A stretch of 64,000 bases of DNA, from the NCBI GenBank assembly GCA_029258885.1, contig JAPDJW010000002.1:544001-608000 (forward strand), written 5' to 3'. The notes beneath the pieces were generated by a model that saw only the letters and a list, made by a program, of their open reading frames with translations, was not told the origin of the DNA and did no database searches. Positions 2,694-20,178 of this stretch are shown here, piece by piece. Positions within the stretch are counted from its first letter, which is position 1. Each line of letters begins with the position of its first letter. The position numbers and the translations under genes were made by a program. Origin of the DNA: Thermoproteota archaeon (GTDB taxonomy: Archaea; Thermoproteota; Thermoprotei; Thermofilales; B9-G17).

Positions 2694-5600
2694 CTCTCAA
2701 TTCTCTTTTTTGAGAGTATTTCTGTAGCGCATGGTTAGAAGGGAGGGATATAGGTATAATTCAAACTGGAGGGGTGGGCTCTCAATTCTCTTTTTTAGAG
2801 TATTTCTGTAGCTCAAAAGAGAAGTCTTAATTCAGGAGCTTAAGGAACTCTAAATCCTTCTTCTCTCAATTCTCTTTTTTGAGAGTATTTCTGTAGCCTA
2901 ACTGTGTTAAGATTTTAACGATTAGAGGCAAGGCTCTCTCCTCTCAATTCTCTTTTTTGAGAGTATTTCTGTAGCAGTTCTGGAGAAGGCGACCTGTCTA
3001 CTTTGTTTACTTGGGCTTTCTCTCAATTCTCTTTTTTGAGAGTATTTCTGTAGCAGGCTTGAGGAAAAGGGTTGGATACTACATAAGGTGATAACTCTCA
3101 ATTCTCTTTTTTGAGAGTATTTCTGTAGCTTCAAATAGAGGATTGGCTTTACGACAGAGAAATCGAGGAAATCTCTCAATTCTCTTTTTTGAGAGTATTT
3201 CTGTAGCAAAGATGTAGTCGAGAATAGATATATGAGAGAAAAATATGCGACTCTCAATTCTCTTTTTTGAGAGTATTTCTGTAGCAAGCCTGTTTTTCAC
3301 ACCGACAGCCCCGTGGCTGTAAAGAGCTCTCAATTCTCTTTTTTGAGAGTATTTCTGTAGCTGCAGTGGTGTTTGCGTATGTTATGTATCAGGCGTATAT
3401 GGCCTCTCAATTCTCTTTTTTGAGAGTATTTCTGTAGCGCTTATGATGAAATAGATAAAGACGGGCCTAAATGCATAATCTCTCAATTCTCTTTTTTGAG
3501 AGTATTTCTGTAGCAGATAAGAGAATTCTGATGCTGAGAAATGAGATTATCATCTCTCAATTCTCTTTTTTGAGAGTATTTCTGTAGCCAGCAAAATTAT
3601 TAGTTTTTCTAATTGGGGTTAAAAATGGCCTCTCAATTCTCTTTTTTGAGAGTATTTCTGTAGCAAGAAGAGAAGGAGACTGGTGGTGGCAAACCAACAG
3701 GTACACCTCTCAATTCTCTTTTTTGAGAGTATTTCTGTAGCATTTATGACAGAGACTTTAGTTACACTGTCTCCAGAACAACCTCTCAATTCTCTTTTTT
3801 GAGAGTATTTCTGTAGCGTTACAGTAATGCTTGTGTATACAGACTTCACATAATTGCCTCTCAATTCTCTTTTTTGAGAGTATTTCTGTAGCTCAGAAAA
3901 AAGGAGAAAAAAGATACATACCTTTCAAAATTGACTCTCAATTCTCTTTTTTGAGAGTATTTCTGTAGCAGTTAAGAGAAAAGTATGGAGTGGCCACATG
4001 GAAACTAATTCCTCTCAATTCTCTTTTTTGAGAGTATTTCTGTAGCTATGGAGCTGTGAACCCGTGGGATGGCGTAGGATCCGCTACCTCTCAATTCTCT
4101 TTTTTGAGAGTATTTCTGTAGCAAAAGTATATAGCATTCACTACAGAGGAATGGGAAAAGTATCTCTCAATTCTCTTTTTTGAGAGTATTTCTGTAGCAC
4201 GCCGCCATAACCAACAAGGAGTGGCGTGATGTGGTTATTGACTCTCAATTCTCTTTTTTGAGAGTATTTCTGTAGCGAGCTAAAGGAAAAGGAGTTTACA
4301 GCCTATGACGTATCAGCTCTCAATTCTCTTTTTTGAGAGTATTTCTGTAGCATAATAAATGTATCCTACAGGTATGATTCCTCCACTGACTCCTCTCAAT
4401 TCTCTTTTTTGAGAGTATTTCTGTAGCGCAAGTTACACTATGCAATTCTCCATGAGCATAAGGCTAAGACTCTCAATTCTCTTTTTTGAGAGTATTTCTG
4501 TAGCCCCTGAGTATCGGGGGCTGGAGTTAATAGGCTTCCTTACTGTTCTCTCAATTCTCTTTTTTGAGAGTATTTCTGTAGCCAAGAGGATAGTTAAAGC
4601 TGGTATCCATCCATTAGAGAAGAGCTCTCAATTCTCTTTTTTGAGAGTATTTCTGTAGCGTGTATGTATGAAGGATGTAATTGAAAGATTAAAGAAATTC
4701 TCTCAATTCTCTTTTTTGAGAGTATTTCTGTAGCCATGGAATTACGACTGTACACGTAAAGCTTTCATTGAGATACGCTCTCAATTCTCTTTTTTGAGAG
4801 TATTTCTGTAGCAATAACATATAGGAAATTTGAGGAAATTCAGAAATTACCTAACTCTCAATTCTCTTTTTTGAGAGTATTTCTGTAGCCCAGATAATGC
4901 AAAGTACTTCCTTCGAAGATATTTCACAAACCTCTCAATTCTCTTTTTTGAGAGTATTTCTGTAGCATAAAACTGAAAAGAAAATAGCCAATTACAATAA
5001 TAAGATAACTCTCAATTCTCTTTTTTGAGAGTATTTCTGTAGCCCCGTATTAAAATTGCTTGAAGAAAAATATAATTTAAGATTTCTCTCAATTCTCTTT
5101 TTTGAGAGTATTTCTGTAGCTTAAAGATGAAATTGAAGCAAGAACAAAAGCCAATCAAAAGATCTCTCAATTCTCTTTTTTGAGAGTATTTCTGTAGCGA
5201 AGCTAATATAGTCTTTATAAAGCTCCTAGGATTTCTTAGCCTCTCAATTCTCTTTTTTGAGAGTATTTCTGTAGCGAATTGAATTTGAATTTGGAATACA
5301 TAGGTTGGGTATAAACCTCTCAATTCTCTTTTTTGAGAGTATTTCTGTAGCTATCGTTCGGTTTAGAATTTGAGTTTGGCATCCACAGATTAGGAACTCT
5401 CAATTCTCTTTTTTGAGAGTATTTCTGTAGCGCGACCACTATGCTGCACTCTCAGACAGTGTACACGGCACACTGGCTCTCAATTCTCTTTTTTGAGAGT
5501 ATTTCTGTAGCAAAATTATTCATCATAAAATGCTTGAAAATATTCTTAGCGACTTACTCTCAATTCTCTTTTTTGAGAGTATTTCTGTAGCGCAGGAAGA

Positions 5601-6140
5601 GAAACGAGAAGATTGATGTTCTCCGTGAAGTATTGGACTCTCAATTCTCTTTTTTGAGAGTATTTCTGTAGCTTGGAAAGGATAGGCTCTACTAGTGTTC
5701 ATTTAGACGGTAATCTCTCAATTCTCTTTTTTGAGAGTATTTCTGTAGCACACAATATAATATGTATAGAGTGTCCAGAGAACTAGAAAGAACAATACTC
5801 TCAATTCTCTTTTTTGAGAGTATTTCTGTAGCCCAATTTTAAAGATACTTGAGGAAAAATATAATTTAAGATTTCTCTCAATTCTCTTTTTTGAGAGTAT
5901 TTCTGTAGCTAAGCAATAGATTTGTAGCGAAAATAAACCAGCTTATAATTAAATCTCTCAATTCTCTTTTTTGAGAGTATTTCTGTAGCTGGCTGTGAAC
6001 GGCAGGGTGGTTGAGCCTGAGTACTGGAACGCTCTCAATTCTCTTTTTTGAGAGTATTTCTGTAGCGTTTTTGTAGGAGTATAGGCGGTGAGGTTAAGGA
6101 GAAAGCTCTCAATTCTCTTTTTTGAGAGTATTTCTGTAGC
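2694..6140 (-). CRISPR. CRISPR array 1: 45 repeats, 44 spacers; repeat GCTACAGAAATACTCTCAAAAAAGAGAATTGAGAG
   Basis: 35-bp direct repeats counted by eye; spacers ~39-45 nt, the two trailer ones ~50 nt; repeat at 2779 lacks one G. Orientation from the ATTGAGAG 3' end and the AT-rich leader at 6141+. Confidence 0.98.
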
Positions 6141-6540
6141 TGTTTTTGTTGTGTTTATATTTTGTCTCTTTTTGTATTTATGCGTTTCGGTGTTTTAGCA
6201 AAACTGCATTCTACGTTTAGCCCTATTTAAAGGGGTATATATACAAATATTTTTCAACTATATAAAATCGATGGATAAAATATATAAGCTTGAATTTTTG
6301 GCAGCGGATCTTTTTCTCTTTTTAGAAATGATCTTATTGCTATAATTATGAAATTATTAATGTATGCTGGGGAATATGGTATATTATTTTTAATATTTTT
6401 ATCTACTTATTAAAAATTTATTTTTGAAAATATTTTTGGAATGTTTTATCATAGTGATTTTTCATGAAAAGAGAAATAAATCATATATAAAGGGGGTCAA
6501 TGATTATAAGCCGTAAAATTGCCAAATGTTCAATTTGGTT
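6141..6540 (-). promoter_or_regulatory. CRISPR leader 1 (one arm of the inverted leader duplication)
   Basis: AT-rich, abuts the first repeat, contains TATA-like TTTAAATA/TATATATA; reverse complement matches 18665-19065. Confidence 0.85.
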
Positions 6541-8771: not shown

Positions 8772-10370
8772 GTGTCTAGTAGGCCGATTGGCTATGTGGC
8801 TTTCGATACTAAGGTTGATACCCAGTATTCTAGCCTCTCCGCTATAAACGTGTTTATGGATAATATTGATAAGATCCATAGGGGCAAGTATGTCCGCATA
8901 GACTCTACTGAGGGTAGGAGGTTTGTTGGGCAGGTTGTAGCTGGCCCATTCTATATGCCTGAGGGGCTTAGCCCCAGCTCTCACGTTGCTCAAGCTTTTA
9001 CGATTAGGGGTGAGAGGTTTAAGTCTCTTCCACCCTACTACGCCGTCTTCTACGTTGAGATACTTGGTGAGTGGGAGAAGGAGTTTAAGTCCACCTATAC
9101 TAAGCCTAGGCCTAAGTCCCCCGTATACGAGATGGGTGCTCTCGAGATATCGGATATCCTCGGCCTAAGCAAGGGTGACATGGTTTTAGGCCATCATATC
9201 GGGTATAAGGGCGTTAAGATTAAGCTTCCATCAAGCCACATGGACGTTTTACCTAGGAACGTCGGCATATTCGGAACCGTTGGCAGCGGGAAGACTAATA
9301 CAGCACAGGTTCTCATAGAGGAGGCCGCGAGACACAACTGGAGTGTTATAGTGATAGATATTGAGGGCGAATACACCTACATGGACTATCCGAACGACGA
9401 CCCCGAGATGTATGAAGTACTGAAGAGCATATACGGCATCGAGCCGTTTAAAATAGAGAATTTCCACGTATTCGTCCCCGTAGGTAGGGATTCTACGCGT
9501 GGAAGCGAGGCAGTTAGATTCGGTATACCGTTCTTCCAGATAAACCCGTACGTGTTGGCCGAGATTATCAGGGCTACCGAGCCACAGCAGAGGTATCTGA
9601 GCATAGCTATAGGTGAGCTTTTAAGCCTAAGGGAGGGAAGCGGAGCCGAGGAGGCTACGGAGTTCGAGGAGTTCGCCTTCGGAGGCTCCAAGGAGGTTGA
9701 GCCTATAACTCTCGAGGAGGTAATTAACCATATTGAAAGTAAGATTAGCTCTACTAGGGATAGGGGTGTCGTCTCCGCCCTAACCGCGCTATCGACGAAG
9801 CTTAGGAGGCTTGACCTTTACGGCGTTATTGATGAGGGCAAGCCTATAGACTTCAGCTCTATACTTAAGCCAGGCCACGTTTCGGTCCTAGATGTAAGCG
9901 ATGTTGAAGATAACGTTAGGAATATATGTATAGCCTGGCTCCTCGACACAGTGTTTAACCTTAAGCTTAGGGATGTCGAGAGGAAGCTGCCTAAAATCAT
10001 GATCGTAATTGAGGAGGCACACGCCTTCGTAAGTAAGGAGGTTAGGGATAAGATGGAGGCTACGATCGACCTGCTTAAGAGGATAGCTAGGAGGGGTAGG
10101 AAGAGGTGGATATCCCTCGTATTCATATCCCAGCAGCCCGGCCACCTCCCGCCGGAGATATTCGAGCTATGTAACACTAGAATTATACATCAGCTTAGAA
10201 GCGAGATGAATATTAAGGCTATTAGGGAGACCACCGGAGCATTAACGAGGGAGCTTGCCCGGAATATAGTCAACCTATCGAAGGGTGAGGCTATAGTCAC
10301 ATCCCCCGTACTAAGGTATCCAGTACTATGTAAGATAAGGCCAGCCGCTACCAAGAGGTTTAAACACTAG
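8772..10370 (+). CDS. herA: HerA/FtsK-family ATPase with N-terminal HAS barrel
   Basis: Walker A GTVGSGKT, DIEGEY, Walker B IVIEEAH, arginine finger RRGRK, SQQP. Confidence 0.9.
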   Translation: MSSRPIGYVAFDTKVDTQYSSLSAINVFMDNIDKIHRGKYVRIDSTEGRRFVGQVVAGPFYMPEGLSPSSHVAQAFTIRGERFKSLPPYYAVFYVEILGEWEKEFKSTYTKPRPKSPVYEMGALEISDILGLSKGDMVLGHHIGYKGVKIKLPSSHMDVLPRNVGIFGTVGSGKTNTAQVLIEEAARHNWSVIVIDIEGEYTYMDYPNDDPEMYEVLKSIYGIEPFKIENFHVFVPVGRDSTRGSEAVRFGIPFFQINPYVLAEIIRATEPQQRYLSIAIGELLSLREGSGAEEATEFEEFAFGGSKEVEPITLEEVINHIESKISSTRDRGVVSALTALSTKLRRLDLYGVIDEGKPIDFSSILKPGHVSVLDVSDVEDNVRNICIAWLLDTVFNLKLRDVERKLPKIMIVIEEAHAFVSKEVRDKMEATIDLLKRIARRGRKRWISLVFISQQPGHLPPEIFELCNTRIIHQLRSEMNIKAIRETTGALTRELARNIVNLSKGEAIVTSPVLRYPVLCKIRPAATKRFKH

Positions 10371-11013
10371 ATTTAAGGAGGGATTTAACTAGCCTGTATG
10401 CTTCAGCTATATCCAGCTTGGAATCCCTACTCCTCAGCCTATTTATCATTCTCCTTACAAACCTCCTGTCCTCACTCCTTAAGTCCTCAAGCTTTAACAT
10501 CTCCCTTAGAGCGGATATCATGAGTAGTTTCGCATACTTCACCTGCCCGGTGGTGGTTGCTTTGCTTGCTATAGCCAGCGATTTTTCGGCTTTACCGAAT
10601 ATAATCTTTCTCCAATCTTTAGCCTTCCTCTCCCTCACTTCATATAGTGCATATCCCTCAAAGACTATAGCTCCCCTTAACCTAAGCTGCTTAGGTAGTT
10701 TCTGCCTCCATGGGGCTACGTATACGTTCTCAGATATTCTCCTTAAACCGCATTTATCTAGGTTTTCTCCGACAGCTACTATTACCCTATCTCCCTTAAC
10801 GCTGCCGCTTTCTAGGGCTTTTAACCCGCATAGGGTTAGTGTAATGTATCCTCCATCCACATTGATGTAGCCCTTCTCTATCAGGCTGTTTAATGCGCTC
10901 GATAATCCGCTTACATCTTCATCTATCGACTTAGCCAGATTGGAAATGCTTATTTTACCCTTCCTCTTAACTATCTAAAGGATATTTAGTTCAACTATGC
11001 TAAGTGTATCCAC
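10360..11013 (-). pseudogene. wHTH-domain protein with in-frame TAG at 10975-10977 (the ORF track shows only 10360-10860)
   Basis: Frame extends to GTG at 11013: VDTLSIVELNIL*IVKRKGKISISNLAKSIDEDVSGLSSALNSLIEKGYI, a wHTH interrupted by one stop. Confidence 0.6.
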
Positions 11014-11715
11014 ATGTATAGTTTAGAGCAATGCAGGATTTTAGGTTTACTGGTAATGTTTAGAAATATCCACCTAGCGGACATATCATTCTACCTGGAC
11101 GCTAGGATGGATGATATTCTCACCTACTGTAGAAGCCTGCGGGGCTACGGCTTCCTAAAGCTCCATGAGAATTCAGCATTGATTACCGAGGCCGGAATAC
11201 GTGCATGCCTAGGGGATCTCGCATTCAGTGGACGGAGATGGTTTATTCTAGTGGTGGATCCATCTGGTGCGCCGAGGGAGATGGATTTCGTGAACGTTAG
11301 GGGACAAGCATACGTAACTCCCTTTACCCTTCAGATGCTCGAGCTAATTAAGCTGCTCTATCGGGAGATCTTCGTAGTCTCATCAAAGGCCTGCAGTATA
11401 TGGATTAGGATGGCTGAGGATAGGATGCCGTACCGCAGAATTATAGACGTCATGAGGACTATAGAGGATATTCAAGATAAACTATCTAGGCTGAGCTATC
11501 CCCGTTCGAGCAGATACGTTAAAGCTATCATATCCAGGCTTAACAGGTGTAGGAGGGAGCTTGAGAAGGCCGCTAGGATAGCTAAGCTTGATTTCAGGCT
11601 AGTAGGGCTAAATAGATCCTTCTCGAGGGATCCGCTAAGCTATTCTAGGGAGCTGTACGGGGTAGCCTTATCGTGTAGGGATAAGGTTCTACGTAGTGCT
11701 GAGGGTCTTAGATAG
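11014..11715 (+). CDS. wHTH-domain hypothetical protein, architecture similar to the divergent neighbour
   Basis: LEQCRILGLL...LRGYGFL...LITEAGIRA wHTH pattern, then WFILVVD...AYVTPF and a helical tail. Confidence 0.6.
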   Translation: MYSLEQCRILGLLVMFRNIHLADISFYLDARMDDILTYCRSLRGYGFLKLHENSALITEAGIRACLGDLAFSGRRWFILVVDPSGAPREMDFVNVRGQAYVTPFTLQMLELIKLLYREIFVVSSKACSIWIRMAEDRMPYRRIIDVMRTIEDIQDKLSRLSYPRSSRYVKAIISRLNRCRRELEKAARIAKLDFRLVGLNRSFSRDPLSYSRELYGVALSCRDKVLRSAEGLR

Positions 11716-11986
11716 CTATATCCTCCTCCTCATGTATCTCGTAGTTGTGTATTATCGTGAGGACTTTAGCTTCGTCTCGTCCACATATTGGTATGGCTAT
11801 AACCCTAGCTTTACTTGGACCTATTATCCTCCTTATTTCGCTCATTATCCCCTTTATTTCGGCGGCTGAAGCCTCGAATAGGAATGCGCTGTACTGTATC
11901 CTATCTCCGCCCATATCCTTAAGGTATCTCCTAACCTCATTCCTAATGCTGTCATCTGATATGTCGTAGACTATAATGTACTTCAA
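11708..11986 (-). CDS. cas2: CRISPR-associated endonuclease Cas2 (copy 1)
   Basis: MKYIIVYDISDD, GGDRIQYSAF, IPIC; 92 aa. Confidence 0.92.
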   Translation of the reverse strand: MKYIIVYDISDDSIRNEVRRYLKDMGGDRIQYSAFLFEASAAEIKGIMSEIRRIIGPSKARVIAIPICGRDEAKVLTIIHNYEIHEEEDIAI

Positions 11987-12037: not shown

Positions 12038-13287
12038 ATGACGCGTATAATTAAGATGTTTCTCGAGGATAACGTGTTGTCGGTTTTAATAGATTTAGTT
12101 GCTCTGGATGAAACGTTTGGAGAACGCTCACGCGAAGTACTGGGTAAAGTTGTGTCTAGAGTGGAGGCCATCCTTCTAGCTCATGGAGGCAGAAACCTAG
12201 AGAGGGAGGAAGGTCTGACTTACGTTAAGGTTAAATGTAAAATTAATCCGAGGAGCTACGGCTACGTCGAGAGGAGCCTCACATCCCTAGAGGATGAAGT
12301 TAGGAGGAAGCTGGGGCTGGTTGAACACCTTGTTGCAGTATTTAGGAGTACCTCCAAGCTGTCTCCGTATCTCGTGAGCTTCTATGAGGTTTCCCCCGCG
12401 CTCCCTAGGAGCCCGGAGGGCTATAGAGTTACTTCACGGATAGCCAGAATCCTATCGAGGGAGAGGAGAGTTATCTGGGCGAGTACGGCCTCGGAGTCCT
12501 AGGCTATCTCGTTAAGCCGGGAGTTTCTATTGAGGATAGCTTTAAGGTATACGTTGGAGATAGGGAGTACACCTTAAATAAGCTGCGCGATAGGCGTCTC
12601 AACTTTAACCTTAGAGGCGATAGGGAGTTCTTCAAAAAGATCGTTGATAGGGGTATTAGAAGGAAGTTCCGTGAGCTAGGGTTTAGGGTTCGCGGATACA
12701 TAGTGGTCTATAGCCAGCCCATATACTCATATGAGTATGTGGATGTTTGGCCAGCATGTGAGTTCCAGACTATAATTGATTCGGATGGCACGCTATCCCT
12801 CGCCTTATCGCCGAGACATATCATCGAGTCGATGAGGAGCATAATGGAGGACTACGAGAGCTTAGAGGAGCTGGTTAAAAGGAGGCGGGAGCTAGTGGGA
12901 TGCAGTGTTAGAAGTATCGTTGATGGACAAGTATACAGGATAGTTTCGGTGCTCGATAAGAGGGCGAGGGATTCATTTGAGGAGCTCAACGGTTCAAGCC
13001 TATGCGAGTTCTATAGGGACTACAATATCGACCCAATGGAGCCAGCTATAGTTATCGAGAGGTATGGTTTCAGGCTCCTCCACGCTCCCTCACTTCTAAG
13101 GAGGATATATAGTCCAGCTGAACTGGCAGGTTTAGGCGTAGCTAGGGAGGTTATGAGAGCCATAAAGCTCAACCTGCTAAGGTGGAGCGATACCTCACGC
13201 AACATTGTTAGAACGTTATCTCCCATAGAGATAGATGGAATCGAGATAAGGTTCTCCGATCAGCCCGAGGTTCTCGAGGTGGCGTAG
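12038..13287 (+). CDS. Argonaute N-L1-PAZ-(L2 start) half, interrupted by a -1 frameshift near 12480-12500
   Basis: The frame of ORF 12703-13287 is open from 12427 (GLGVLGYLVKP...FFKKIVDRGIRRKFRELGF) and overlaps the end of ORF 12038-12502; PAZ-like SLCEFYRDYNIDPMEPAIV and LLHAPSLL; L2-like C-terminus. Confidence 0.7.
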
Positions 13288-13288
13288 C

Positions 13289-14236
13289 ATCTACAGGGAG
13301 TTCTGTGATTGGGGCTACATCCTCGCTCCACGTAATGGGGAGATTATAGCTAAGGGACAGATTGAAGCGGGCAGATTTAAGCCCAAGGATAGGATAGTTC
13401 TCTCGGGCTCCGGCTCAATAAATGTCGATGCTGTGGCGAATATCGTCGGTGCGGGAGGCTCAATTTTGGTTGAGAAGGGATCTATACAGCTAGACTACTT
13501 CAACTCTATGTTCTCACGTAACCTGCTGGCTCAGCTCGCGTCTGTGGAGAATTCTGAGGTTAGGAGCAGAGTTGCCTCCTCTATATTGGAGGCTGCTGCA
13601 TATAATAAGATTAGGGTTCTGGAGATACTGGAGGTTCCCGAGGACGTTAGGAGCAGGGTTGTCGGGGAGATTAAGGGGCTTATATCGATGCTTAAAGGAA
13701 CTGTTCTAAGCAGATTGATGGGCGTTGAAGCTAGAATAACCAAGCTCTACTTCGAGGCTCTAAGATACGTAATTCCCGTGGAGTATGGTTTTAAGGCTAG
13801 AACGCGTAGACCCCCTAAGGACTACTTTAGCGCTGCACTAAGCTATGGGAACATGCTCCTCTACAGACACGTACTTAAGGAAATACTTAGGTTCGGCCTG
13901 GATCCTAGGCTAAGCTACCTCCATACGCCCTATAGGCATAGGCCATCGCTAGCGCTCGATATAGCCGAGGAGTTTAGGCAGGCCGTGGTTGATCTAGCAG
14001 TTATTCCGCTCTACACGTCGAGGTCTATGAGCATTAAGGGGGACTTCCAGGTTTTCGGCTCATCCATATACCTCAATAAGCGTGGAAACTTTAAGGTTAG
14101 GAGGAGCTTCCACCACAGGATGAACCTTAGAGTTAAGGGGAGGAGCCTCGCCGACGCAGTAAGAGGTCAGATTAGGAAGCTGCTGGAGTTCATCCACGGC
14201 GATAGGAGCGAATATACTCCGTTCAGAATTCAATAG
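13289..14236 (+). CDS. cas1: CRISPR integrase Cas1, catalytic residues intact (track start 13433; frame open further upstream)
   Basis: MGVEARITKLYF, ALSYGNMLLY, GLDPRLSYLH, SLALDIAEEFR; upstream in-frame IYREFCDWGYILAPRNGEII...IVLSGSGSIN fits the Cas1 beta domain. Confidence 0.92.
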   Translation: MYREFCDWGYILAPRNGEIIAKGQIEAGRFKPKDRIVLSGSGSINVDAVANIVGAGGSILVEKGSIQLDYFNSMFSRNLLAQLASVENSEVRSRVASSILEAAAYNKIRVLEILEVPEDVRSRVVGEIKGLISMLKGTVLSRLMGVEARITKLYFEALRYVIPVEYGFKARTRRPPKDYFSAALSYGNMLLYRHVLKEILRFGLDPRLSYLHTPYRHRPSLALDIAEEFRQAVVDLAVIPLYTSRSMSIKGDFQVFGSSIYLNKRGNFKVRRSFHHRMNLRVKGRSLADAVRGQIRKLLEFIHGDRSEYTPFRIQ

Positions 14237-14480
14237 TATCTATTATAATGATATTTTCATAGCATCTCCTACATGGAAATATTATATCGACCCTCCCAGC
14301 CCCCTCCGCAACGATTCTCCTAATGTCGTTAATCATCCTCTCGGCGTTTTTCTCGTCCAGCTCTACCTCATAAACGCTGTACTCCCTGAAAACGCCGCCG
14401 TAGTCCTTAAGCCTATTCCTTAATCTATCCCTAAGCCTATCATATCCAACTGGGATATCGAAGACGACTATTATCTTCAA
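14223..14480 (-). CDS. cas2: CRISPR-associated endonuclease Cas2 (copy 2)
   Basis: MKIIVVFDIP, LKDYGGVFREYSVYE, IFPC. Confidence 0.88.
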   Translation of the reverse strand: MKIIVVFDIPVGYDRLRDRLRNRLKDYGGVFREYSVYEVELDEKNAERMINDIRRIVAEGAGRVDIIFPCRRCYENIIIIDTIEF

Positions 14481-15346
14481 TAAACCGCCTCCTTAAACGG
14501 TATAAAGCCTCCAGCCGGATTCATCAGATAGGATGCAAGCCCCTTCGCAGCGGCCTTTATGTGTTTAAATAGAGGCATCCTCCTACCATCAGTATCCTCA
14601 ACGTTCCTCTCAACGATATTCCTAAGATACTTCAGGAGAAGCCTCCTCCCCTCATAGCTACCTAAGTCGATGGATGAAAGGATGTCGGAACCAACTTCAA
14701 CGAGGCAACGCCAGACAGTCGATGGCTCAAATACTAGAAGGAAATCCCTTGTAAGCGATCTCCTATTTACGAAGCCTATGTGTGGGGTTAAGCCAGCCCT
14801 AACCACGGCGTCCAGACATTCTGCTTCAATAAAATAGCTGAGATACTGGATAACTGACTCGATTAGGCTAAGTTTTACTCCAAGATATCTTGATAAAAGC
14901 TTAAGCGCATTAACCCTAACTTCCTCCAGCTCCCCCTCGGCCCTGAATGGAAGGTTAAGTCTCGAGAAAAAGGCGCAGAGGTTATGGTTGAATGCCTCCC
15001 TAATGCATGAAGCTATCTCCTCAGCTCTCGAGGTAGAGTACTGGGTTAATATCAGCTCAACGTGCTTCCTTTGAAGCATCCCCGTAAACCACGCTATCCT
15101 ATCCTTAAATACCAGAGCTATGGTTACGTTATCCTCTGAAGCCAGCGATAGAGCCGATGTACTTATCCTCCTACATCCATCCAATACTAGGAGGTAGGCA
15201 GTTAAGGAGGCTATCTCACGTCTACGATCTCCAGCCTCAACTACGAAGCGCCTACTCCTACGGCCTAAATTAAAGCCATTGTACGCTATCCAGTAGCTCC
15301 TCCTCAACCAATCCCCTTGATCATAGTATATAGTTTCCTTATCCAC
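14477..15346 (-). CDS. Divergent Cas1 paralogue, predicted catalytically inactive
   Basis: Cas1-like N-domain (GFNLGRRSRRFVV, ISTSALSLASEDNVTI) and AGLTPHIGFVN, SLTRDFLLVFEP; no GxE motif, His replaced by Asn, DxxE acidic residue lost. Confidence 0.7.
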   Translation of the reverse strand: MDKETIYYDQGDWLRRSYWIAYNGFNLGRRSRRFVVEAGDRRREIASLTAYLLVLDGCRRISTSALSLASEDNVTIALVFKDRIAWFTGMLQRKHVELILTQYSTSRAEEIASCIREAFNHNLCAFFSRLNLPFRAEGELEEVRVNALKLLSRYLGVKLSLIESVIQYLSYFIEAECLDAVVRAGLTPHIGFVNRRSLTRDFLLVFEPSTVWRCLVEVGSDILSSIDLGSYEGRRLLLKYLRNIVERNVEDTDGRRMPLFKHIKAAAKGLASYLMNPAGGFIPFKEAVY

Positions 15347-16134
15347 GGCCTAGGCTCAACCCTACCCTCCCTAATAATGATCACGCCCCGCTCCTCAAGC
15401 TCTTTAATTCTCTCGTACCCTATAATATCCTTTAAATCGGCCAGTGATATGTGTGGGAAAATCCTATCTATGAGGGAGAGGAATTCCTCCTTTACAGTTA
15501 TCGGCAGCAGGGGGAGTGCCACAACCTCCCTGAAGGACTCATGTATATAATATACCTTATCCGCTCCCATAACCATTGAGATAATGGTGGCGAATGAGGT
15601 TTCAGGCTTAAAGCCAGCAGTAGCATTAACGTAGACCCTGTATCCAGCATTCTTCTTACTCTTAACGACCCCAGCAATTTTATCTATTAAATTGGATAAA
15701 GCCTCATCGAAGAGCGAGGCGCCGAGCCCGAAGCCCCTAACCCTAACGGGCTCATTAACGTAGTACCCCCTAGACTTAAGGTGTTCATAAACTATCCTTC
15801 CACATAGATATCCGGTGCCGGTATCAGTGGTATATAGCCCTATCTCAATATCCTCAATCCTCGATGGACCGTAGAGGTCGGTGAACCTGTAGAATGCGTT
15901 AAGCTCAGCACTAGCACTATAGGGATCAGAGTTCACATACTCCAGAAGCCTATCGAAAACCTTGGAACCCCTATGGGCGGAAGCCTCAGCCTTCTTCTGA
16001 TCATCATGGTCGGGTGGAAGCCTACCCCACGAACTTATTTTAAGCTCCTCAGCCTCATCCTTAAAAGTCCTTGCAAAGTTTAGGAGGATTGCAGTTCCAA
16101 CCGTAACCACGTGAAATACCTTCATAGATACCAC
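15304..16134 (-). CDS. CARF protein, APE2256/SSO1393 (Crn1-like ring nuclease) family, with wHTH tail
   Basis: HVVTVGTAIL, SAELNAF, TDTGTGYLCG, NATAGFKPE, YYIHESF. Confidence 0.8.
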   Translation of the reverse strand: MVSMKVFHVVTVGTAILLNFARTFKDEAEELKISSWGRLPPDHDDQKKAEASAHRGSKVFDRLLEYVNSDPYSASAELNAFYRFTDLYGPSRIEDIEIGLYTTDTGTGYLCGRIVYEHLKSRGYYVNEPVRVRGFGLGASLFDEALSNLIDKIAGVVKSKKNAGYRVYVNATAGFKPETSFATIISMVMGADKVYYIHESFREVVALPLLPITVKEEFLSLIDRIFPHISLADLKDIIGYERIKELEERGVIIIREGRVEPRPWIRKLYTMIKGIG

Positions 16135-16164: not shown

Positions 16165-16878
16165 ATGATGCTACGTGGATACAGTCGCCTAGCAGCCTCA
16201 GGCATAAATAGAATGGTTAGAGTAACGGATGTCACGTTATACCTCTTCTGTCCGCGGAAACTCTACCTAGTGGGCTTCCTAGGGATAAGAGGCAGGCCGA
16301 CTAGGGAGAGCATTATGGGTAAATTGGCCCACTACGCATACCTAAGGGCAAGCATCCTAAAGATAACCGAGAATAGGGTGGAGGAGGAGAGCGTGAATAT
16401 AGCTAGAGAGGCAGTCGAGAAGAAGCTTACGGAGGGGCTAAGCGATACGGAGGTCAAGGAGATAGTTGTAAAAACCTTAAGGTTTAGGGCTGAAAACCCG
16501 ATTACGGGTGGGGTTGAGGTCGAGAAGTACGTTGAATCGGTAAGGCTGGGGTTAAACGGACAGATAGACCTAATGGAGGAACATACGCCAGTGGAGGTAA
16601 AGTACAAGTCCAGAGCTGAATACAGGGATCTAATACAGCTAACACTCTACACACTACTACTCGAGGACGTCTACGGGTGGGATATAGATTACGGCTACAT
16701 CGATCTACTTAAGGCTTCAAGAAGGTTAAGAATTGAAGTAAATAATAGGCTTAGAGGTGATGCGCTTAAGCTTAGGGATAAAGTGCAGGAGACAATACTA
16801 ATGGGGACGTATCCGCCAGCTAGGGATAAGTGTAGGGGATGCGACCTAAAGATAGAGTGTAGATCCCTCTTCCACTAG
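16165..16878 (+). CDS. cas4: CRISPR-associated exonuclease Cas4
   Basis: YLFCPRKLY, GQIDL, PVEVKY, QLTLY and C-terminal KCRGCDLKIEC (four Fe-S cysteines). Confidence 0.88.
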   Translation: MMLRGYSRLAASGINRMVRVTDVTLYLFCPRKLYLVGFLGIRGRPTRESIMGKLAHYAYLRASILKITENRVEEESVNIAREAVEKKLTEGLSDTEVKEIVVKTLRFRAENPITGGVEVEKYVESVRLGLNGQIDLMEEHTPVEVKYKSRAEYRDLIQLTLYTLLLEDVYGWDIDYGYIDLLKASRRLRIEVNNRLRGDALKLRDKVQETILMGTYPPARDKCRGCDLKIECRSLFH

Positions 16879-18077
16879 AGGAACCAGAGCCTAGAATAAT
16901 ACTCCTCCGACGGCGATACACCCAACCTAAGGAAGCTACATATCCTATGGGCATACAAAGTCGTTATTGGAAGCCTAGTTGAAGCAAACGCTGAAGCCCA
17001 GTGTAGCTCGCTCAACCAGTACACATCCCTGGCAATATCATACATACTAACCTCCCAGTTAGATGCCTCAGCCAGCTCAACAACAACCGGCCTAACCAAT
17101 CCAGACACATCAATATAGGGGTGCTCCGGGAAGCCTGAGGTAACCACAAGATACCTATATTTATCAAGCACATAGAACGTACCTTTCTCCGGATTAGTAA
17201 CTCTTCTCCCAACCCTCCTGGTAACCCTAGGCACAGCCCTCTTCTTAACCTCAACAAAAACCCAGTTAGATGCAACGCCCTCATCAACAGCCGAGTCCAT
17301 AACATCCCTAACCGCTTCAAGCTCAACATCAAAGGTAGAGCCATCCCTATGAACAACTATTAAATTAACCCTACCAGCATGCCTATGAATAACGTCGAGA
17401 GCGAGCGTAAGCACATTCCTAATCGAATAGATAACCTCAACCCCGGGATTAAACTCGAAGCGCCAGTCGAAGAATATGCCCCCATCAAACACGAAGACTG
17501 TTACAACAACGTTGTTACCGACAGTATCCAAGCCAATATACGCATCACCTAAAAGCCTATCCCCCAAAACCCAAGGTATTCCCCCAGCCTTACAGTAGAT
17601 AGACAGAGCTAAATTAAAGAGAACATAGGATTTACCCGCAAGCCTTCTAATAGTAGAGTATGTAACCATTTGACTAGGAATCCCACGTAGAGCTAAAGCC
17701 TGCTTAATAGGAACATAGGGATCCTCCTCAAAACCCGGATAGTTTTCATCGGGAACAGCTACGATAGCTACATCAACATCCTCAATTGAATCGATGACAT
17801 CAGCGTACCTATCATATGATTCAAAGAAGTACTCAACGTCCCCAACCCTACAGCCAAACCATCCAGTAAGACCTCCAAAACCCCTAACACCATAGATAAG
17901 GTTATCCATGAGGACACGAGAGTAGCTATACATTCCACGAGGACAGATAAAACAGAGCCTAACAGCATCAGGACCGGAGAAAGGACCGAAGCCGAGTTTA
18001 AACCCCTCATAGGGGAAAATAGAGGTACCACTCCCAAACCTTAAAACAGGCCTAGAGAAGACGCCTCCCCTAACCAT
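16875..18077 (-). CDS. ago: Argonaute L2-MID-PIWI half with DEDH tetrad
   Basis: PVLRFG...GFGPF; MID pocket Y121/K125/Q136/K163; YIGLD(184), E214, HRD(245)G, RLPITTLYAH(377); WFL C-terminus. Confidence 0.92.
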   Translation of the reverse strand: MVRGGVFSRPVLRFGSGTSIFPYEGFKLGFGPFSGPDAVRLCFICPRGMYSYSRVLMDNLIYGVRGFGGLTGWFGCRVGDVEYFFESYDRYADVIDSIEDVDVAIVAVPDENYPGFEEDPYVPIKQALALRGIPSQMVTYSTIRRLAGKSYVLFNLALSIYCKAGGIPWVLGDRLLGDAYIGLDTVGNNVVVTVFVFDGGIFFDWRFEFNPGVEVIYSIRNVLTLALDVIHRHAGRVNLIVVHRDGSTFDVELEAVRDVMDSAVDEGVASNWVFVEVKKRAVPRVTRRVGRRVTNPEKGTFYVLDKYRYLVVTSGFPEHPYIDVSGLVRPVVVELAEASNWEVSMYDIARDVYWLSELHWASAFASTRLPITTLYAHRICSFLRLGVSPSEEYYSRLWFL

Positions 18078-18142
18078 AAGATAATAAAGCTAACCAAATA
18101 TATAAAGCCTAAGACACCGCTTAATCGATACAACGATGTATC

Positions 18143-18553
18143 CTATAAGCTGCCTCTAGGAAAGAGGGGACCCCCAGACACAAGCTTCAACACGTATTTA
18201 AAGTACTCCCTAAAGTGATCCGCCAAATAACTCCTCTCAGAGGACTTAAGCTCAGCAAGCTGTTCCTCTATAAACACATCATCGTCATCGGGCTCCATTC
18301 TGAAATACTTCGTAAGAAACTTGGCAGTAACCAGTATGTAGAAGTCGCCGAGACTTAAAATAGCGTAGGCTGGCGGAATACCCGAACCATAAATCCTCAC
18401 ATGATACTTCCACGCCTCAAGAGCCTCCTGAGCCATCGGATACACATCACCACTCTCATACCCACACCTCGGACAAACAACACCCTCCCTAAACACAGCG
18501 TAGCGAGTACCACAAGACGGACACCTATAATTATACGAAGAATGATACGTCAC
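18143..18553 (-). CDS. Zn-ribbon hypothetical protein
   Basis: CPSC...CPRC at the N-terminus, then a helical domain; first gene transcribed inward from leader 2. Confidence 0.65.
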   Translation of the reverse strand: MTYHSSYNYRCPSCGTRYAVFREGVVCPRCGYESGDVYPMAQEALEAWKYHVRIYGSGIPPAYAILSLGDFYILVTAKFLTKYFRMEPDDDDVFIEEQLAELKSSERSYLADHFREYFKYVLKLVSGGPLFPRGSL

Positions 18554-19065: not shown

Positions 19066-20178
19066 GCTACAATAAAACTCTCAAAAAAGAGAATTGAGAG
19101 GCCTTGTGATGTGGAAGTATAGTCGCTTGATGGCATCTGCTCTGCTACAATAAAACTCTCAAAAAAGAGAATTGAGAGGCAATATTGGCTGTGTCGTTGC
19201 CTATAAGATACAATGGGTATATCGCTACAATAAAACTCTCAAAAAAGAGAATTGAGAGAGGCAGTCATATCGTGTTGCCTTCTCCATCCTCTTGGCAAGT
19301 ATCGCTACAATAAAACTCTCAAAAAAGAGAATTGAGAGATTTTTCCACAATATGGTGAATTCACTTGAGTGTTCTGTCTTAGCTACAATAAAACTCTCAA
19401 AAAAGAGAATTGAGAGATATACTCGTCAATTTTCGTTAACGCCTCTGTTAAGTCCTCGCTACAATAAAACTCTCAAAAAAGAGAATTGAGAGATATAATC
19501 TAGTTTCATCTACCTCGCTTTCAAAGAGACCAACGCTACAGAAATACTCTCAAAAAAGAGAATTGAGAGTAGCATTTTGAGTAATTTAACGATTTTATCC
19601 CACTCTTCTGCTACAGAAATACTCTCAAAAAAGAGAATTGAGAGTCTTCATCAGTTACCTTGAATGGCAAGTTCTCTATTCTTACTTGCTACAGAAATAC
19701 TCTCAAAAAAGAGAATTGAGAGAGACATAGTCTTTTACCACAGTAATGTAGCCGTCAATAATGCTACAGAAATACTCTCAAAAAAGAGAATTGAGAGGCA
19801 TGCCTAGTCGTAACCGGCGGCATACTAATTCTCATAAGCGCTACAGAAATACTCTCAAAAAAGAGAATTGAGAGTATAGAAGCGTTTACTTTTCTTTTCT
19901 CCTCATTAAGCTTATTGCTACAGAAATACTCTCAAAAAAGAGAATTGAGAGGATAGGGATTTTAGGTTATTCTAATTCTTTTTTCAATTTCGCTACAGAA
20001 ATACTCTCAAAAAAGAGAATTGAGAGGAATTATGCTCAGTTTTTAGGTATTGCTTAATGACTTTTATGCTACAGAAATACTCTCAAAAAAGAGAATTGAG
20101 AGAGCATGTTAGTGTACATCTCTACAACATCCTTTAATGTCATGCTACAGAAATACTCTCAAAAAAGAGAATTGAGAG
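19066..20178 (+). CRISPR. CRISPR array 2: 15 repeats, 14 spacers, plus a trailing spacer and a GCTACA stub at 20218
   Basis: Repeats 1-6 are GCTACAATAAAACTCTCAAAAAAGAGAATTGAGAG; repeats 7-15 are GCTACAGAAATACTCTCAAAAAAGAGAATTGAGAG, identical to array 1. Confidence 0.98.

Follow-up and report, generated by a model that had tools for sequence, protein, structure and literature searches.

What kind of Argonaute is encoded by a gene that has room for just the MID and PIWI domains, appears to keep all four catalytic residues, and lies among the genes of CRISPR adaptation? The question is raised by a stretch of 64,000 nucleotides from a Thermoproteota archaeon (GenBank assembly GCA_029258885.1, contig JAPDJW010000002.1, positions 544,001 to 608,000 of the forward strand), hereafter the window. 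From its sequence an initial reading (the original prediction) had identified a short-sized MID-PIWI Argonaute, and had proposed that this is an active slicer requiring a separately encoded N-PAZ chain. The present analysis makes it likely that the product of the gene is the MID-PIWI subunit of a two-gene (i.e. split), catalytically competent long-A-type Argonaute that is tied to a CRISPR adaptation module. The two genes of the proposed Argonaute are:

16875..18077, minus strand: gene of the MID-PIWI subunit, 400 amino acids (aa), comprising the end of L2, MID and PIWI, with an invariant C-terminal WFL
12038..13287, plus strand: gene of the N-half, comprising an extra N-terminal domain and N-L1-PAZ-L2, ~416 aa if read through

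The MID-PIWI open reading frame (ORF) is uninterrupted, with an ATG start and 400 codons. The frame is open over only 404 codons, so there is no hidden N-terminal extension and no longer protein that could have been masked by a wrong start. The protein matches the Pfam Piwi family PF02171 at 59.5 bits, above the cut-off of 28.9 (E 4.2e-16), and the best PADLOC model of a prokaryotic Argonaute (pAgo) matches it at 1.9e-66; these matches bear out the 400-aa MID-PIWI protein of the original prediction. Its top sequence matches in the PDB are the active long-A Argonautes CbAgo (E 1.4e-21) and CpAgo (3.8e-18), to which it is 23-25% identical across the whole of MID-PIWI, the highest identity among the solved structures aligned.

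An AlphaFold (AF2) model of the protein has a predicted local distance difference test (pLDDT) score of 87.4. On alignment with solved structures using VIA-align, residues 1-400 of the model correspond to residues 341-751 of CpAgo, 338-748 of CbAgo and 310-685 of TtAgo. Over 350-377 residues the root-mean-square deviation (rmsd) is 2.7-3.5 Å and Z is 33-37, for AfAgo, CpAgo, CbAgo, TtAgo and PIWI proteins. From the model, the 400-aa protein is predicted to have a complete MID-PIWI fold. Rank by fold was dropped as a criterion of class, since Argonaute classes are not told apart by Foldseek or VIA-align scores: AfAgo, CpAgo, CbAgo, TtAgo, PIWI proteins and SPARTA all lie at Z 33-37.

We note that an A/T-rich, TATA-like sequence TTTATATA lies at 18095-18115 on the minus strand, ~30 nt upstream of the MID-PIWI ATG. 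This possible archaeal TATA box hints that the gene may have its own promoter, and possibly a leaderless transcript.

The residues expected in the active site can be placed by alignment with CbAgo. D184, D245 and H377 fall exactly on D541, D611 and D727 of that protein. E214 is one residue off E577, and in the AlphaFold model it lies in the loop between a strand (202-209) and a helix (215-234). The spacing of the four residues, 30/31/132, is similar to that in CbAgo (36/34/116). Substitution of catalytic residues by alanine is a common way to trap complexes. The deposited sequence of CbAgo in PDB 6qzk has alanine at 541 and 611, and that of CpAgo in 9jh8 has alanine at the second of these positions, as would be expected for catalytic residues mutated for this purpose. 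DEDH is the version of the tetrad found in PfAgo and eukaryotic Ago2. The tetrad named at the outset is thus found at the catalytic positions of CbAgo and CpAgo, with E214 within one residue, and the alignment places a putative DEDH active site in the MID-PIWI protein.

In the MID domain, Y121, K125, Q136 and K163 are invariant across 25 members of the family, and align with the Y, K, Q and K of both CbAgo and CpAgo. By sequence this is a canonical YKQK 5′-phosphate pocket, as had been proposed.

A protein of this size might be an orphan truncation of a longer Argonaute, but this was ruled out by its relatives. A word-indexed search returned ~30 proteins of 380-408 aa with 34-58% identity to the MID-PIWI protein. 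When 1.8 billion representatives were searched with a profile, ~17 clusters of proteins of ~400 aa scored 380-553 bits; the next matches were full-length pAgos of 700-880 aa, at 197 bits or less. The nearest fused forms are just 29-30% identical to the MID-PIWI protein. This sharp drop in score, together with the remoteness of the fused forms, indicates that a size of ~400 aa is a conserved property of a discrete clade. By their record titles, the members come from metagenome-assembled genomes (MAGs) of uncultured Thermoproteales/Thermoprotei, Nezhaarchaeota, Jordarchaeales and Baldrarchaeota. Of the 61 genomes related to that of the window, only five carry the MID-PIWI family, a patchy distribution that is typical of defence genes.

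The position of the family was sought in a tree of the MID-PIWI region of 158 proteins, calculated in IQ-TREE under LG+C20+F+G4 by posterior mean site frequencies (PMSF), with a quick search and Shimodaira-Hasegawa-like approximate likelihood ratio test (SH-aLRT) support. It was rooted on the genome's own inactive short pAgo, as a single long-branched outgroup. The ~400-aa family forms one clade (SH-aLRT 99). It is nested in a clade of 114 rows (SH-aLRT 97), mostly long proteins with DEDD, DEDE or DEDH, that includes CpAgo itself (P0097, close to CbAgo) and a relative of Aquifex aeolicus Ago, AaAgo (P0145). A separate clade of 40 rows has destroyed tetrads, and one of its members (P0085) matches a PDB chain named EcAgo. 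Two further proteins, P0160 and P0119, were not kept as anchors of the tree, since neither matched a PDB entry at E 1e-30 or better. The window protein (P0001) lies in a subclade of 12 members (support 95) that are 35-58% identical; eleven of these have DEDH and the twelfth is truncated. Such a PIWI phylogeny had been set beforehand as a check on the original prediction, and from the sequences the ~400-aa family is placed as an archaeal group branching among the DEDX long pAgos, apart from the inactive long-B-like and short forms.

The short pAgo of the same genome, distant from the ~400-aa family in the tree, is a second Piwi protein of 465 aa (L002:1453-2850, minus strand, i.e. the G000:C4:172809-173627 region). 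It is a typical inactive short pAgo, matching PADLOC PDLC02436 at 1e-100 and having R/-/T/K at the tetrad positions. A 316-aa ORF without a family lies directly upstream, and a gene of the metallo-beta-lactamase fold downstream.

An Argonaute equivalent to the long forms would require the N-terminal half from elsewhere. In all the relatives examined, as in the window, a gene of its own encodes the N-L1-PAZ-L2 part. An N-half gene of ~380-420 aa goes with the MID-PIWI gene at nearly all related loci, lying beside or near it in L003-L009, L011-L014 and L020-L024. The profile of the N-half family matches CbAgo 148-319 (E 2e-5) and also TtAgo 83-231, and gives weak matches to isolated PAZ domains of Piwi-like protein 1. 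For P0036, an intact N-half, the AlphaFold model (pLDDT 87.1) resembles TtAgo, CpAgo, CbAgo, Siwi and human Ago2 in their N-terminal halves, with Foldseek E values of ~1e-14. By VIA-align its residues 100-415 lie on residues 5-334 of PliAgo (Z 20.2, rmsd 4.1 Å, 304 residues), and on the same region of CpAgo, CbAgo and TtAgo. On the basis of this model the separate gene is predicted to encode an N-L1-PAZ-L2 fold. Residues 1-99 (12038-12340 in the window) are an extra domain of strands and two long helices that aligned to no solved Argonaute compared.

In the window itself the N-half is broken into an ORF at 12038-12502 and a frame open over 12427-13287, which overlap in different frames. The PADLOC full-length model PDLC02428 matches P0001 at its positions 296-659 and the ORF 12703-13287 at positions 124-288. 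The related loci have an unbroken gene of ~380-420 aa; its initial ~150 residues correspond to ORF 12038-12502 and the remainder to the 12427-13287 frame. Because the unbroken homologues span both pieces, the window holds a single N-half gene with a one-base deletion, located in the run of G at 12477-12479. In metagenomic contigs of three independent studies the run is one G longer (GGGG in place of GGG, with the addition behind 12476), which restores the frame; these contigs cover the MID-PIWI gene without insertions or deletions. A programmed frameshift was considered and rejected, since these near-identical strains simply carry one more G.

The association of the two chains was modelled using the P0009/P0036 pair, with an alignment supplied for each chain, in three runs and with three controls. 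The model has an ipSAE of 0.85, against 0.00 for the best control; the ipSAE mark is reached by 58 of 80 solved complexes and by 2 of 110 mismatched pairs. At least 91% of the contacts agree between runs, and the partner pLDDT is at least 85. On the MID-PIWI side the modelled interface comprises residues 1-19, with the invariant pair G17 and T18 among them, as well as residues 281-305 of PIWI. On the N-half side it comprises residues 71-104 (i.e. the region of the extra domain), 244-260 and the C-terminal tail. The modelling supports binding of the two chains to each other. A conserved N-L1-PAZ-L2 gene in about a dozen loci, and a confident model of the heterodimer, thus support the separately encoded N-PAZ partner that had been expected.

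The remaining genes of the cassette in the window are those of a CRISPR adaptation module and its surroundings:

11708..11986, minus strand: cas2a, divergent from the N-half gene, a pairing kept in relatives
13433..14236, plus strand: cas1, directly downstream of the N-half gene
14223..14480, minus strand: cas2b, a second cas2, paired with the Cas1-like gene
14477..15346, minus strand: Cas1-like gene (divergent or degenerate cas1), with a weak match to Pfam Cas1, conserved between the Argonaute halves in relatives
15304..16134, minus strand: CARF protein of the Cas_APE2256 family
16165..16878, plus strand: cas4, a PD-(D/E)xK nuclease with 1+3 Cys, 237 aa, Pfam Cas_Cas4 1.5e-15
18143..18553, minus strand: zinc-ribbon ORF, 136 aa, with an N-terminal CxxC...CxxC, between the CRISPR leader and the MID-PIWI gene
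19302..20178, no strand assigned: CRISPR array flanking the cassette, with the same repeat, inverted, as the array at 3403-6149

The cas4 and MID-PIWI genes converge, and both stop codons lie within the palindrome CTAG at 16875-16878; this is the 4-nt overlap with the 3′ end of cas4 in the original prediction. No TIR, SIR2 or APAZ model matched any neighbouring ORF. The statement that there is no fused or adjacent effector stands for these families, but the abutting Cas4 belongs to a family that cooperates with some long-A pAgos (PMC12094033). There is no interference complex inside the cassette.

Two gene orders are found repeatedly in related loci. In arrangement A (L003/L004, L005, L009, L012, L013, L014, L023 and L024) cas2 is divergent from the N-half gene, the end of which overlaps the start of the MID-PIWI gene. 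In arrangement B (L006-L008, L011, L016, L018, L019, L021 and L022) the N-half gene is followed by cas1, and a pair of cas2 and degenerate cas1 on the opposite strand precedes the MID-PIWI gene. The window has arrangement B with the addition of the CARF gene and cas4, and with the MID-PIWI gene inverted. L020 is an exact mirror image of the window, with a MID-PIWI protein that is 48% identical and an intact N-half of 407 aa; the 4-nt convergent overlap of cas4 and MID-PIWI is found there and also in L021. Intact tetrads occur under both arrangements. Cas6 is often found nearby, as is HerA with a NurA-like gene, and in many relatives cas4 is not adjacent to the MID-PIWI gene. Thermoproteota, Nezhaarchaeota and two Asgard lineages all show the Argonaute genes interleaved with cas1, cas2, degenerate cas1 and cas4.

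Several smaller observations were made in and around the cassette. The open frame of cas1 extends back to 13250, into the end of the N-half gene, but the earliest start codon of a usual kind is at 13433; among relatives cas1 either directly adjoins the stop of the N-half or overlaps it. At 14923-14927 in the Cas1-like gene, related strains omit one base at 14923 or 14924 and insert a T behind 14927, paired changes that read as a compensated local frame difference in a degenerate cas1. One contig of run X5 skips 444 bases in the CARF gene (15561-16006), and the joint has 21 letters on its shorter side, which is too weak for a deletion to be called. The zinc-ribbon ORF matched no family above cut-off and has no homologue beside the MID-PIWI gene in the related loci; it was rejected as a partner, and is probably not part of the Argonaute system. 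The ORFs at 10360-10860 (minus strand) and 11014-11715 (plus strand) have no Pfam family. In L011 and L013, homologues of the 233-aa one of these two lie next to cas2 and to an N-half or MID-PIWI gene, and its product may be a regulator of the cassette.

How might such an Argonaute work? The MID-PIWI and N-half chains would assemble into a heterodimer equivalent to a full-length Argonaute, with the conserved N-terminal strand of MID-PIWI (residues 1-19, including G17 and T18) docking on the N-half. The complex would bind a 5′-phosphorylated guide, most likely DNA as in CbAgo and CpAgo; the archaeal PfAgo and MjAgo provide analogues that use DNA guides. Complementary nucleic acid of an invader would then be cut through D184, E214, D245 and H377, so that the split Argonaute of these hot-vent archaea is probably active as a slicer. 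It may also work together with the formation of CRISPR memory, in that guide production and prespacer production might share DNA fragments or machinery. Such sharing is suggested because the linkage to cas1, cas2, degenerate cas1, cas4 and HerA/NurA stays tight through repeated rearrangement.

A number of points weigh against an active split enzyme, in the family or in this strain. The tetrad rests on an alignment in which E214 is one residue away from the reference glutamate. Other branches of the family keep DEDD or DEDH or have lost from one to three of the tetrad residues, and given these degenerate tetrads slicing is not expected to be universal among the ~400-aa proteins. The Asgard MAG members L012 and L013 (Jordarchaeales and Baldrarchaeota) have degenerate tetrads with the N-half directly upstream. 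The tree comes from a quick search and has a single long-branched outgroup, and support for the branching order among the long-A subclades is 90 or less. The score of the modelled heterodimer may reflect likeness to solved single-chain Argonautes. In the window the halves are on opposite strands 3.6 kb apart, so that co-expression is not guaranteed, and because the sole copy of the N-half is frameshifted the heterodimer may not form in this strain. Lastly, genome G005 (99% complete; loci L010 and L017) has a MID-PIWI gene, beside HerA, a NurA-like gene, a CARF gene, cas4 and cas2, with no N-half detectable genome-wide. Its tetrad is altered (D, shifted E, E, H). Life without an N-half is thus possible, but it appears to go with decay of the active site.

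These points bear on what the MID-PIWI protein might do by itself. It could be a stand-alone 'pseudo-short' Argonaute that binds guide-target duplexes alone, and nicks targets or hands them to the abutting Cas4. The frameshift in the window with no second copy of the N-half in the genome, the state of G005, the possible promoter of its own suggested by TTTATATA, and the convergent overlap with cas4 that is kept in L020 and L021 are all in keeping with this, as are the binding of nucleic acids by AfAgo alone (PMC10954474) and the cooperation of some long-A pAgos with Cas4-family nucleases (PMC12094033). Yet the N-half accompanies the MID-PIWI gene in about a dozen loci across phyla, and the most conserved N-terminal residues of MID-PIWI form the modelled interface with it. 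The frameshift is absent from three near-identical strains, the G005 copy lacks part of the tetrad, and many relatives have no adjacent cas4. We therefore regard a stand-alone protein as very unlikely. The lesion might instead mean that the Argonaute of this strain is a freshly inactivated remnant, in which the N-half is a pseudogene and the MID-PIWI ORF remains intact just because the damage is recent. The one-base deletion is in a short G run (GGG vs GGGG); it is present in the window and also in the contig that Logan assembled independently from the likely source run (X1), at a depth of ~12, and no other N-half was found in the 99.9%-complete genome. Against this, contigs hide minority variants, so that part of the population may have an intact allele, the deletion may yet be an error of the consensus, and the MID-PIWI gene is free of insertions and deletions in four samples. 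A remnant is quite possible, though not probable, and concerns the state of one strain rather than the identity of the gene; owing to the deletion, the system in this strain may be freshly disabled or dependent on read-through.

The neighbours of the genes allow a different role, in which the split Argonaute is mainly an accessory of CRISPR adaptation, not an interference nuclease, capturing or trimming small DNA fragments and supplying them as prespacers to Cas1-Cas2 or the degenerate Cas1-Cas2b pair. Both halves lie interleaved with cas1 and with degenerate cas1 and cas2b, are flanked by cas2a, cas4 and often HerA with a NurA-like gene, and remain so in several phyla despite rearrangements, in a cassette without an interference complex. 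There is a precedent in the MpAgo group, encoded between cas1 and cas2 (PMC6299218). All of this is contextual, however, and defence genes lie together in islands in any case; that the tetrad is conserved speaks for cleavage of targets. The accessory role, possible but doubtful, is compatible with a split slicer and does not exclude it. A bolder version would make the split Argonaute a physical and functional part of the adaptation machine, with the N-half co-translated with Cas1, and MID-PIWI expressed along with Cas1-like-Cas2b and Cas4, and with DNA-guided cuts (or the products of HerA-NurA) feeding prespacers to Cas1-Cas2. This is unlikely, but if true an innate Argonaute defence would seed CRISPR memory, and the gene split would let each half be wired to a different subunit of adaptation. 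The reading we prefer is still that of a two-chain, catalytically competent Argonaute of the long-A type.

The closest likeness is with the long-A pAgos, i.e. CbAgo and CpAgo, and PfAgo and MjAgo. The MID-PIWI family has in common with these the YKQK pocket, the DEDX positions, its placement in the tree, and an N-half that matches their PAZ region. It differs in that the window Argonaute is two genes split within L2 in place of a single N-L1-PAZ-L2-MID-PIWI polypeptide, the N-half has an additional N-terminal domain of ~100 aa, and the system sits in a CRISPR adaptation module.

Identity as a short pAgo was rejected on the basis of the intact DEDH, the lack of an APAZ, TIR or SIR2 neighbour, and the position in the tree among DEDX long pAgos. 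With SPARTA, SPARSA, SPARDA and SiAgo the window protein shares a size of ~400-500 aa and the presence of MID-PIWI only, and the Argonaute chains of SPARTA rank high by Foldseek E. Short pAgos have an inactive PIWI, MID motifs of the HK or RK type, and APAZ-effector partners (PMC6299218), whereas the window protein has DEDH, YKQK and, as its predicted partner, an N-half with a putative PAZ.

The Cas4-family protein ACE1 cooperates with cyanobacterial long-A pAgos in the APACE systems (PMC12094033), and the cas4 gene that directly abuts the MID-PIWI gene recalls this. However, ACE1 and ACE2 are bacterial clades with mean lengths of 278 and 313 aa, distinct from CRISPR Cas4 (PMC12094033). The Cas4 of the window has 237 aa, matches models of CRISPR Cas4, and sits with cas1 and cas2.

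Members of the MpAgo group are also encoded between cas1 and cas2; they are single-chain proteins of bacteria (Thermotogae), with a MID-OH pocket for 5′-OH RNA guides (PMC6299218). The window Argonaute resembles them in having cas1 and cas2 as neighbours inside a CRISPR locus, and in some relatives Cas6 or type III genes are nearby too. Unlike them, its family has a canonical YKQK pocket, and is split and archaeal. The structure of MpAgo was absent from the PDB sequence matches of the MID-PIWI protein. The window system is a second, independent case, after the bacterial MpAgo group, of Argonaute genes within CRISPR adaptation modules, and it makes the question of substrates shared between Argonaute and CRISPR adaptation directly testable.

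The split itself is known from AfAgo and AfAgo-N, a split long-B Argonaute with a dead PIWI, an N chain of N-L1-L2 in which PAZ is absent or reduced, and downstream effectors (PMC10954474). Both systems have a MID-PIWI chain of ~400-430 aa and a separate N chain, usually encoded directly upstream, predicted to form a heterodimer equivalent to a long pAgo, and AfAgo structures are among the top structural matches of the MID-PIWI model (Z 35-37). The window system differs in its intact tetrad, an N chain that spans the long-A N-L1-PAZ-L2, a position on the DEDX side of the tree, and its cas1, cas2 and cas4 neighbours. In the literature searched, split pAgos are only of the catalytically dead long-B kind, and were explained as a step from active long pAgos to effector-coupled short ones (PMC10954474). 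A split form with the tetrad, the 5′-phosphate pocket and a PAZ-bearing N-half would show that splitting needs no prior loss of slicing, and would provide a natural two-chain thermophilic nuclease for structural study and engineering. A literature search for a split long-A or Cas1-linked archaeal pAgo gave only AfAgo, the context of MpAgo and the ACE1 work, an absence that is no proof of novelty, and nothing was returned for 'PprPIWI', the name of a PADLOC model that matches both halves. What is new with respect to the systems compared here is the combination of a split architecture, an intact tetrad, a canonical pocket, and an N chain with a putative PAZ and an extra domain, in an archaeal CRISPR adaptation context.

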